Of a stretch of DNA of 64,000 bases, positions 47,423 to 48,817 are shown piece after piece. Each line of letters begins with the position of its first letter. Position 1 is the first letter of the stretch. Source of the stretch: an uncultured Clostridium sp. (GTDB lineage Bacteria; Bacillota_I; Bacilli_A; RF39; UBA660). A program made the translations under genes and the position numbers. A model generated the notes under the pieces. That model was given only the letters and a program-made list of their open reading frames with translations, made no database searches and had not been told where the DNA came from. The stretch is taken from contig CAMKPE010000003.1 of the NCBI GenBank assembly GCA_946414595.1, forward strand, positions 6,860-70,859, given 5' to 3'.

Positions 47423-48817
47423 ATGGCAGATGCATGGACAGGTATAAATGTTGAAGAAGTAACTAGTCAGTTAGATAATTTTGCTGATACAACACAAACT
47501 ATAATTCATAATTATTCAACTATGTTTGATTTGTTTAATGATGAATTATATGTAACATGGGGATCAGAAAATGCAGTTAAATATAATACACAATTAATTA
47601 AATTGTTTGAGTACAAAAGAACATTATGTGAATTACGTAATAAAATATTACAAGCTGCAAGTGGTGCTGCATCATTTATGGCAAAACACAATGGTACAGA
47701 ATTTAATTATTCAGTTGGATATATGATGTATGGCGGAAGTATAAAGAACTTAAAAGATGAAATTAACGGAGTTAAAGGAATGAATATTCCTCTTGCTAAG
47801 ATGGCTTTAGAATCTTTCCAAGATGGATGCAACGAAGTAATGAACCAATTAGATGAGTTACCAGTATCTTTTGGATTATATGATCCATCAGGAGAATTAC
47901 AAGCAACATATAAAGCATTAATTAAGGACACAGTATCAAAATTCAAGGATGATTTTATACACGCAAGAGATTATGTATCAGATGCGTTTGAAGAAGAAAC
48001 ATTACAACTTGAAGTAGGTAAAGCAGAAGCAGAAGAAGAATTAAGCGGATATATTAATCCTACAACTGATGAAGGAACACCAATGAATCCACCAGAAACA
48101 GAAGAACCAAGTACTGGGCAAGATACTACTGATGATTTGTATGAAGATATTATGAAATATATTGAAGAAAATCCAGATTGGTTTAAAACTTGGATTGATG
48201 GTAAACCAAGTTTAATCGACCCAATAGATCCTGGTTATCCAATTATTTGGAGACCAGATTACTATTGTATAACTTGTAAACCAATAATTTACTTATATCC
48301 AGAAACAGAAACACAAGTAGAGGTTAAATTAGGGCATCCTGAAAAACTAACTACAACATATCCAAAATATAATGGCGGATGGCGAGTAACTGCAAAACCA
48401 AATGGAGATTTAATAGATGCTAAAGGAAGAAACTATTATTCACTTTATTGGGAAGGTATAAATGCCAATAGATATATGACAGATGAAGGATTCGTTGTAG
48501 AAGGAAGCAAAGTTGAATCATTCTTAGAAGAAAAGTTAGCGCTTCTTGGATTAAACGAAAGAGAAGCAGAAGAGTTTATCATTTATTGGCTTCCAAAACT
48601 TGAAGCAAATAAATATAACTACATAAGATTTGAAACAAAAGAAGAAATTGATAAAGATATGCCACTAGAAGTAAGTGGCAACCCAGAAACTGTAATAAGA
48701 GTATTAATGGATTACAAAGGATTAGATGCACCAGTTGAAGTAAAAGAACAAACAATTGTAACTCCAGAAAGAAAAGGATTTACAGTAGTAGAATGGGGAG
48801 GAAGCTTAATAAAATAA
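47423..48817 (+). CDS. DGWTG-family protein P5 (core plus acidic/Pro linker plus ~200-aa globular C-terminal domain)
   Basis: MADAWTGIN, TWGSENAVKYN, GMNIPLAK, LYDPSGEL, EEETLQLEVGKAEAEEEL. Then NPTT...PPETEEP linker and a CITCKPIIYLYPE...VVEWGG domain. Confidence 0.9.
   Translation: MADAWTGINVEEVTSQLDNFADTTQTIIHNYSTMFDLFNDELYVTWGSENAVKYNTQLIKLFEYKRTLCELRNKILQAASGAASFMAKHNGTEFNYSVGYMMYGGSIKNLKDEINGVKGMNIPLAKMALESFQDGCNEVMNQLDELPVSFGLYDPSGELQATYKALIKDTVSKFKDDFIHARDYVSDAFEEETLQLEVGKAEAEEELSGYINPTTDEGTPMNPPETEEPSTGQDTTDDLYEDIMKYIEENPDWFKTWIDGKPSLIDPIDPGYPIIWRPDYYCITCKPIIYLYPETETQVEVKLGHPEKLTTTYPKYNGGWRVTAKPNGDLIDAKGRNYYSLYWEGINANRYMTDEGFVVEGSKVESFLEEKLALLGLNEREAEEFIIYWLPKLEANKYNYIRFETKEEIDKDMPLEVSGNPETVIRVLMDYKGLDAPVEVKEQTIVTPERKGFTVVEWGGSLIK

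Follow-up and report, generated by a model that had tools for sequence, protein, structure and literature searches.

The window analysed here is a stretch of 64,000 nucleotides (nt) from contig CAMKPE010000003.1 (positions 6,860 to 70,859) of an uncultured Clostridium sp. of the RF39 lineage (metagenome-assembled genome GCA_946414595.1). On its plus strand, the open reading frame (ORF) P5 (47423..48817) encodes a protein of 464 amino acids (aa) that consists of the 209-aa core of a multigene helical family, a 73-aa linker and a 181-aa C-terminal domain (aa 284-464). Homologues of this domain usually carry it behind a membrane anchor or a lipoprotein signal. P5 has the family core in that place, and no signal peptide, membrane helix or other hydrophobic segment was found when all 464 aa were scanned for hydropathy (highest 17-aa Kyte-Doolittle mean of the whole protein, 0.61). 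We put at about even the chances that P5 is a natural export-route swap, with the domain released instead of tethered and probably acting on a glycan or on the envelope.

A preliminary description of this DNA, made from the letters alone, had recognised in P5 a conserved core, a flexible linker and a foreign C-terminal domain. The ORF, the alignment with paralogues and the AlphaFold2 model all bear this out, and every string quoted there was located in the protein: GKAEAEEELSG at aa 199-209 (nt 48017-48049), YINPTTDEG... from aa 210, DYYCITC at aa 279-285, LYWEG at aa 341-345, NEREAEEF at aa 378-385 and ERKGFTVVEWGG at aa 449-460. The C-terminal part is indeed globular, but it measures 181 aa instead of the ~200 aa given at first.

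The family core

The family core (aa 1-209; 47423..48049, plus strand) is a four-helix double hairpin according to profile comparison and to the AlphaFold2 model, which has a predicted local distance difference test score (pLDDT) of 89.9 and helices at aa 10-45, 49-89, 122-144 and 158-208. The invariant W46 sits at the tip of the first hairpin and D154 at the tip of the second (Y153 in most copies). Over ~207 aa the P5 core is 36-46% identical to three neighbouring paralogues encoded downstream; the alignment ends at GK-x-x-AE-x-x-L, beyond which the tails are unrelated. The 1.44-Mb genome contains 31 core paralogues, totalling 1.7% of its bases. A tail is missing or no longer than 33 aa in 20 of the 31 members; in the other 11 the tails span 48-255 aa, the longest being that of P5. 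The tails of four other paralogues are related to one another, rich in Gly and Trp and about 160-180 aa long, and three of these four paralogues, all on contig C9, are each followed by a homologous gene encoding 122-129 aa.

When compared by hhalign with the WXG100 proteins of the same genome, the first hairpin (aa 8-92) could be aligned (probability 68-76%, expectation value (E) 2-5e-5), with W46 superposed on the Trp of the WXG motif. A helix-turn-helix hairpin of ~100 aa with Trp at the turn, as in WXG100 proteins, is thus seen in both the AlphaFold2 model and the hhalign alignment. The turn itself reads W-G-S or W-A-S, and the W-x-G motif is not present. Because aa 4-35 (GWTGINxxxV...LDxF) match aa 116-147 (GVKGMNIPLAK...LExF) of the same core (probability 82%, E 1e-5), the core is an internal duplication of a hairpin unit. 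Judged by these profile matches, it is best described as an internally duplicated WXG100-like double hairpin. The second hairpin was considered as a WXG100-like unit in its own right as well, and rejected since it gave no match in the profile-profile comparison.

Like WXG100/ESAT-6 proteins (PF06013), the core thus has an alignable hairpin with Trp at its turn, and its repeated unit forms a four-helix bundle that resembles an Esx dimer in a single chain. Unlike them, it is ~209 aa long, not ~100 aa, has W-(G/A)-S instead of W-x-G at the turn, and contains a second hairpin that does not match. It also lacks a Pfam match to the family, as PF06013 did not exceed its gathering score on P5 or on any of the 30 paralogues. 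The LXG model PF04740 gave no match on P5 at E<=1 and no match above cut-off in the genome; two of the 30 paralogues reached E 0.074, which is sub-threshold. Other Pfam matches on the 30 paralogues (EspB_PPE, DUF5344) were likewise sub-threshold and none was significant. A search with the core profile against PDB sequences returned nothing useful, and Foldseek against the PDB found only generic four-helix bundles of the ferritin/Dps type and designed helical bundles.

The core family was absent from 16 genomes of the same genus and present in two of 120 other genera of the taxonomic family. In this sampling it appears to be lineage-restricted and rare.

The C-terminal domain

The C-terminal domain, referred to here by its motifs as the 'KPxIYLYP...VEWGG' domain (aa 283-464; 48269..48814, plus strand), was delimited by AlphaFold2 modelling and by homology as an apparently captured extracytoplasmic module. 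The model, built from an alignment of 56 sequences, has an alpha+beta fold with a pLDDT of about 96 from aa 283/284 to 464. Homology to other proteins starts at K286-P287 (KPIIYLYPE) and extends as far as the final residues, P5 ending 4 aa after the VEWGG motif. E values against the listed homologues were 4e-106 to 4e-70. Conservation reaches 97% or more at 38 positions across 356 sequences of the domain, and P5 keeps all 38; these positions include K286, P287, Y290, Y292, P293, Y313, P314, Y316, W320, E344, E381 and E384, the segment from F385 to P391 except I387 (with Y388 and W389), and R426, Q443, R450, E457, W458, G459 and G460. At the positions conserved to 90-97% it departs only once, with I445 for L, and its terminal branch in the domain tree is unremarkable (77th percentile). 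Since all 38 conserved positions are kept, the P5 domain is intact and not a chance resemblance. Conserved Cys, His or Ser residues were not found in the 356 sequences. The two Cys residues of the region described earlier as Cys-containing, C282 and C285, stand immediately before the conserved block, and the domain family does not conserve them.

No match was obtained for P5 in Pfam, NCBIfam or PHROGs, nor for the domain among PDB sequences, whether P5 alone or the domain profile was used. Pfam searches with 56 domain homologues gave only membrane-helix noise, the source names of 10 homologue clusters said 'hypothetical protein' at most, and a literature text search for the domain motifs returned only noise. 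By structure, Foldseek found no relative in the PDB (best E 0.3, template-modelling (TM) score about 0.1). In BFVD it found one uncharacterised Terrestrivirus protein, from a giant virus known from metagenomes (A0A3G4ZNZ8; E 2e-14, 24% identity, TM 0.65), a match that is uninformative for function.

The domain is widespread. A word-indexed search yielded 5,833 homologues and an exhaustive HMMER scan 6,539 clusters at 50% identity, 2,787 of them with E below 1e-30; the HMMER matches always span about aa 284-464 of P5 and end at the last residues of the homologue. The carriers are mostly gut Clostridia, and across bacterial classes the domain is 50-74% identical. It is sporadic in the phylum to which GTDB assigns the organism, with 4 carriers among 300 genomes sampled; within the genus it occurs in 4 of 16 genomes. 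The same genome holds a second copy in a 347-aa protein (C10:56602-57645) that has a membrane anchor as well as a PrcB_C-like region; this copy is 65% identical to the P5 domain at the protein level and 72% at the DNA level.

The usual setting of the domain was surveyed in 87 ORFs that contain it; they come from 80 genomes, chiefly of gut or rumen Clostridia with some of Bacilli. In these ORFs it follows a membrane helix at the N-terminus or the signal of a lipoprotein (e.g. ...LLLAGC), and it often occurs in tandem copies, including lipoprotein arrays in Oscillospiraceae (L080, L091, L095, L096). In 353 of 355 homologues the domain ends the protein (within 10 aa), and in 325 of the 355 a strongly hydrophobic segment (1.8 or more) precedes it. 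The remaining homologues mostly have lipoboxes just under the threshold or are truncated gene calls; thus, in no fewer than 92% of homologues, a membrane helix or the signal of a lipoprotein precedes the domain. These anchors and signals imply that the domain works outside the cytoplasm, and it is accordingly classed, from its sequence context, as an extracytoplasmic module that is usually tethered to its producer. Its partner modules are of surface types (dockerin, BspA-type leucine-rich repeat (LRR), PrcB_C). The question raised in the preliminary description, whether the domain also follows other trafficking devices, is hereby answered: membrane anchors, lipoprotein signals, dockerin and BspA-type LRR proteins all carry it. 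One ankyrin-repeat protein of 1120 aa (P0121) contains the domain three times; this protein and the Terrestrivirus copy possibly reflect transfer beyond bacteria or binning contamination.

A single anchor with an outward-facing domain is also the topology of TipC, the immunity protein of the toxin TelC (PMC10765036). Together with the tandem lipoprotein arrays of Oscillospiraceae, this topology would suit a protective, immunity-like module at the membrane surface, which P5 would then secrete as a soluble decoy or as shared protection. We regard this as very improbable, as the strong conservation of the domain is unlike that of immunity proteins, no toxin gene is linked to it at 80 loci, and it is also fused to adhesin-type modules.

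The linker and the origin of the fusion

The region between core and domain was described at first as an acidic/Pro linker. This holds for aa 210-238 (48050..48136, plus strand), an acidic, Pro/Thr-rich disordered linker, but not for aa 239-282 (48137..48268, plus strand), which form a Trp/Pro/Asp-rich, tail-like spacer with a pLDDT of 41-67. In the spacer AlphaFold2 placed two short low-confidence helices (aa 240-258), followed by disorder. The linker starts at an NPT(T/S) junction common to P8 and the C29 paralogues, and the spacer motifs NPDW and IDPxxDPG are found also in the tails of the C29 paralogues and of P0268. Since the spacer resembles the tails of the closest paralogues, the domain appears to have been joined onto an existing family-type tail. 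P0268 itself, an NCBI protein of 296 aa from a near-identical strain, has a tail that is a mosaic of those of the paralogues at C29:4091-4906 and C29:5151-5924, which indicates that tails of the core family are shuffled by recombination.

The nearest relatives of the domain consist of a membrane anchor, a PrcB_C-like region and the domain, the latter preceded by ...CDPN(I/V)(S/A)YKP. At the corresponding junction P5 reads ...DYYCITCKP, which places the join within a few residues of K286. The best match of the P5 domain outside the genome has 74% protein identity, and because it is no closer the capture appears not to be recent. A recent copy of the organism's own C10 gene was considered as a source and rejected, given the 65% protein and 72% DNA identity and the position of the two in the tree, where they are not sisters.

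A second protein combining core and domain was not found among ~270 proteins inspected, in a search of 5.8 billion proteins, in 40 relatives' genomes or in JGI metagenomes, nor did any collection searched contain a P5 orthologue. From the near-identical strain (GCA_016648615.1) a contig of only 3 kb was retrieved, which ends short of P5. The single JGI match (L117) was rejected as a chance match of KTWIDGKP in phage tail-fibre-like ORFs. This string occupies aa 254-261 of P5 (nt 48182-48205) and recurs in these ORFs as TGK(T/K)WIDGKPIYR; its recurrence in an unrelated metagenome contig is probably due to chance.

A fusion found once in all these collections, in a family whose tails recombine, might be a young or neutral accident, or the core family might not be exported at all. 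In either case a surface cassette would have ended up behind a cytoplasmic helical protein and would have no role. That type VII export of the family is deduced from sequence, and that the core fails formal membership in the LXG and WXG100 families, would be in keeping with such an accident. We nevertheless consider it unlikely, as the frame is open over 464 codons and every conserved residue of the domain is kept. The GC content at third codon positions (GC3) is even across the parts of P5 (0.14-0.16), and the gene has its own promoter-like site, Shine-Dalgarno sequence and terminator, like other paralogues. In addition, the identity values given above argue against a recent capture, and still the sequence shows no decay.

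A chimeric join made during assembly is scarcely credible. The assembly does comprise 38 contigs and the protein occurs on one contig only, but the reading frame continues across the join, neither composition nor GC3 changes along the gene, and the junction lies inside a family-type tail. There is no repeat of a length that could mislead an assembler, the other copy being 72% identical, and the contig carrying P5 is 97.7 kb long.

Link to type VII secretion

EssC is encoded in the genome (TIGR03928, 1059 bits against a cut-off of 778; C9:23879-27772), together with about 13 WXG100 genes, six of which score above the cut-off while about seven are weaker. On the same contig an array of seven core paralogues (C9:9723-17073, minus strand) lies 6.8-14 kb downstream of essC, and one further paralogue is situated 1.1 kb upstream of it. 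EssC was present in both of the two other genomes with the core family, as compared with 42 of 120 genomes overall. In G127, a genome from another genus, the sole core-family member directly follows essC and a 90-aa ORF.

A WXG100-like core, an EssC in the genome and paralogues close to essC together make type VII export the best reading for the core family, and the fusion of the P5 core to a domain that is exported elsewhere is further evidence that the core directs export. EssC-dependent type VII secretion of core-family proteins is, in our judgement, reasonably likely.

Two side observations concern these loci. In the C9 array three long members (388-398 aa, with Gly/Trp-rich tails) are each followed by a gene for a soluble protein of 122-129 aa; these proteins have no Pfam match and could be immunity proteins or chaperones. 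The gene order in G127 (locus L112, G127:C1:63787-67260) is essC, the 90-aa ORF, a 218-aa distant core member with a DAWGS turn, a 297-aa helical protein and an 81-aa ORF, and the product of the 90-aa ORF is possibly YukD-like.

Comparison with polymorphic toxins

LXG polymorphic toxins belonging to the secretion system of type VIIb (T7SSb) include TelA-D of S. intermedius, EsaD of S. aureus and YeeF of B. subtilis (PMC10765036). Like P5, they have a helical N-terminus of ~200 aa without signal peptide, a linker and a variable C-terminal domain, and as in the core family EssC is encoded in the genome and some tails that look membrane-active are followed by small genes. Unlike these toxins, P5 has no match to the Pfam LXG model and neither Lap-type helper genes nor an immunity gene; its domain is conserved, normally self-tethered and not polymorphic. 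The 20 members with a short tail or none also set the core family apart from LXG toxins, and make it more like Esx or PE/PPE proteins than like polymorphic toxins.

The preliminary description had inferred a likeness to polymorphic toxins. As far as the architecture is concerned this stands, whereas a toxin role for this particular domain appears poorly supported by the sequence comparisons. A cognate immunity gene, for which a search had been suggested there, was not found: no ORF of immunity size lies at P5, which has its own terminator and is followed by P6, a core-only member. No toxin family was matched by P5 or its domain in Pfam and NCBIfam, or by the 56 homologues in Pfam. Among ~270 proteins inspected, none had the domain behind RHS, LXG or another module of toxin trafficking. 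With 50-74% identity from one bacterial class to another, the domain does not qualify as polymorphic. The domain did not turn out to be an intracellular housekeeping enzyme either, the finding that the preliminary description had named as fatal to its own proposal.

P5 could still be a polymorphic antibacterial effector whose domain damages the envelope of competitors, e.g. as a hydrolase of cell-wall glycan, with the immunity encoded elsewhere or unneeded because the wall of the producer is not a substrate. The order of core, linker and variable C-terminus agrees with this, and so does the toxin/immunity-like layout of the four paralogues with Gly/Trp-rich, membrane-active-looking tails, three of which precede 122-129 aa genes. 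Type VII effectors acting at the outer face do exist, e.g. TelC (PMC10765036), and invariant Glu, Arg, Tyr and Trp residues would fit a glycan-acting enzyme. We find it doubtful, however, in view of the missing immunity-size ORF, the terminator of P5 and the lack of toxin-family matches, and also because at least 92% of the homologues are tethered to the membrane of their producer. At 80 domain loci no neighbouring gene is conserved; the recurrent 'neighbours' were antisense ORFs in GC-rich genomes. Moreover, the domain is conserved across distant lineages, and the same genome holds an ordinary membrane-anchored copy of it (65% identity).

Transcription unit and neighbouring genes

P5 is preceded by a promoter-like site (TTTACA-17-GATAAT, 47352..47380, plus strand) and by a strong Shine-Dalgarno sequence, read from the DNA (AGAGGAGG, 47404..47411, plus strand), 11 nt before the ATG. 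An identical TTTACA/GATAAT pair precedes the next paralogue, at 48844-48872. These sites are consensus matches only, and there are no more of them in the region than expected from shuffled sequence. Terminator-like sites, in contrast, number four in the region against 0.4 expected. One of them, found by the terminator scan, lies upstream of P5 (47326-47345). A second one, an intrinsic terminator with hairpin and T-run (48816..48837, plus strand), overlaps the last two bases of the P5 stop codon. Because of this overlap P5 is predicted to be monocistronic and thus a separate transcription unit. The next paralogue, P6 (48917..49543, plus strand), consists of the core only (208 aa), has its own promoter and is not an immunity-type gene.

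The product of the gene just 5' of P5 (46398-47327, plus strand), which the upstream terminator separates from P5, has 309 aa, contains an HEFNH motif of the HExxH type and matches neither Pfam nor NCBIfam. This gene occupies the place immediately upstream of P5 in which a Lap/WXG100-like gene pair was looked for, and no such pair is present. Further upstream lies array 1 of the core family, P1-P4 (36112..39515, plus strand), in which P3 (37586-38731) encodes 381 aa with a Gly/Trp-rich tail of 157 aa. Right after this array, a gene at 40183-41754 (plus strand) encodes a 523-aa AAA+ ATPase with an AAA_lid_6 lid of the CbbX/SpoVK/EccA type, which could be a chaperone for the core family. Downstream of P5, at 52757-60466 (plus strand), a 2,569-aa protein with GH94 catalytic, GH94 supersandwich and glucoamylase-like domains resembles cyclic beta-1,2-glucan synthase, which is unusual for a monoderm with a small genome.

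Discussion

In the proposed sequence of events, each family copy has as its core a double hairpin in one chain that goes back to a WXG100/ESAT-6-like unit, and EssC-dependent type VII secretion would export such proteins. In P5 a complete 181-aa domain would have been joined onto a family-type tail, so that the core substitutes for the signal peptide or anchor which the domain uses elsewhere on a Sec or lipoprotein route. The domain of P5 would then leave by the type VII machine, soluble or wall-associated and in any case untethered. Outside the cell it would bind or modify an envelope or extracellular polymer, probably a glycan, and would not act as a classical antibacterial toxin paired with an immunity protein. 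That enzymes can become type VII substrates in this way is known from mycobacteria, where recombination with pe/ppe genes had this effect; LipY, for instance, belongs to the PE proteins in one species and to the PPE proteins in another (PMC7028111). TelC, as a T7SSb effector, acts on the outer face of the membrane (PMC10765036), and an extracellular site of action is therefore compatible with the type VII route.

Several results weigh against this scheme. Models of EssB/YukC, EsaB/YukD and EsaA match nothing in the genome, which is 94.8% complete, and the type VIIb apparatus of this organism may be minimal or divergent. The LXG and WXG100 Pfam models stay sub-threshold on the core, for which Foldseek gives only generic four-helix bundles. 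P5 lies on a different contig from essC, without adjacent Lap-type helper genes. The idea of glycan binding or of an enzyme draws only on the conserved Tyr, Trp, Glu and Arg residues and on the dockerin and LRR partners. Finally, the fusion is a singleton in all collections searched, so that selection for it cannot be shown.

Of the known systems, the recruitment of envelope-acting enzymes by mycobacterial PE/PPE proteins would be the closest functional parallel of P5, by analogy. Like the core family, PE/PPE proteins form a large multigene family with a conserved helical N-terminal domain and variable tails (PMC7028111). Occasional members capture an envelope-acting domain by recombination, as proposed for P5, and the carrier can be swapped, as in LipY. 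The two families differ in that no sequence relationship was found (EspB_PPE reached E 0.068 in three of the 30 paralogues, which is noise level). PE/PPE proteins form heterodimers, whereas the core of the P5 family is a single-chain double hairpin, and the organism studied here is a monoderm member of Bacillota with a T7SSb-type EssC. With the anchored or lipoprotein 'KPxIYLYP...VEWGG' proteins (C10:56602-57645 and the tandem lipoproteins of Flavonifractor and Pseudoflavonifractor, L080 and L095) P5 has the 181-aa domain in common, complete in its conserved residues and in both cases at the extreme C-terminus. Those proteins, however, carry a Sec signal, lipobox or anchor, often with a PrcB_C-like region, where P5 has the double-hairpin core.

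P5 links an otherwise orphan core family to the cell exterior, and at the level of sequence no other evidence speaks as strongly for the core as an export module. It also points to a very abundant, unnamed extracytoplasmic domain, which is a good target for structural and biochemical work. As an export-route swap, P5 would give the mycobacterial PE/PPE-enzyme fusions, in which type VII carriers recruit envelope-acting domains by recombination, a counterpart in a monoderm. A further-reaching version, which we think unlikely, would make the domain an extracellular enzyme or lectin of a new fold and P5 a type VII effector that is set free and has the envelopes of other cells, or glycans of host or diet, as its target. 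If that were true, the domain would be among the larger unannotated families of gut Firmicutes, and P5 would define a new class of effectors together with the export route of the 31-copy 'DGWTG' double-hairpin family.

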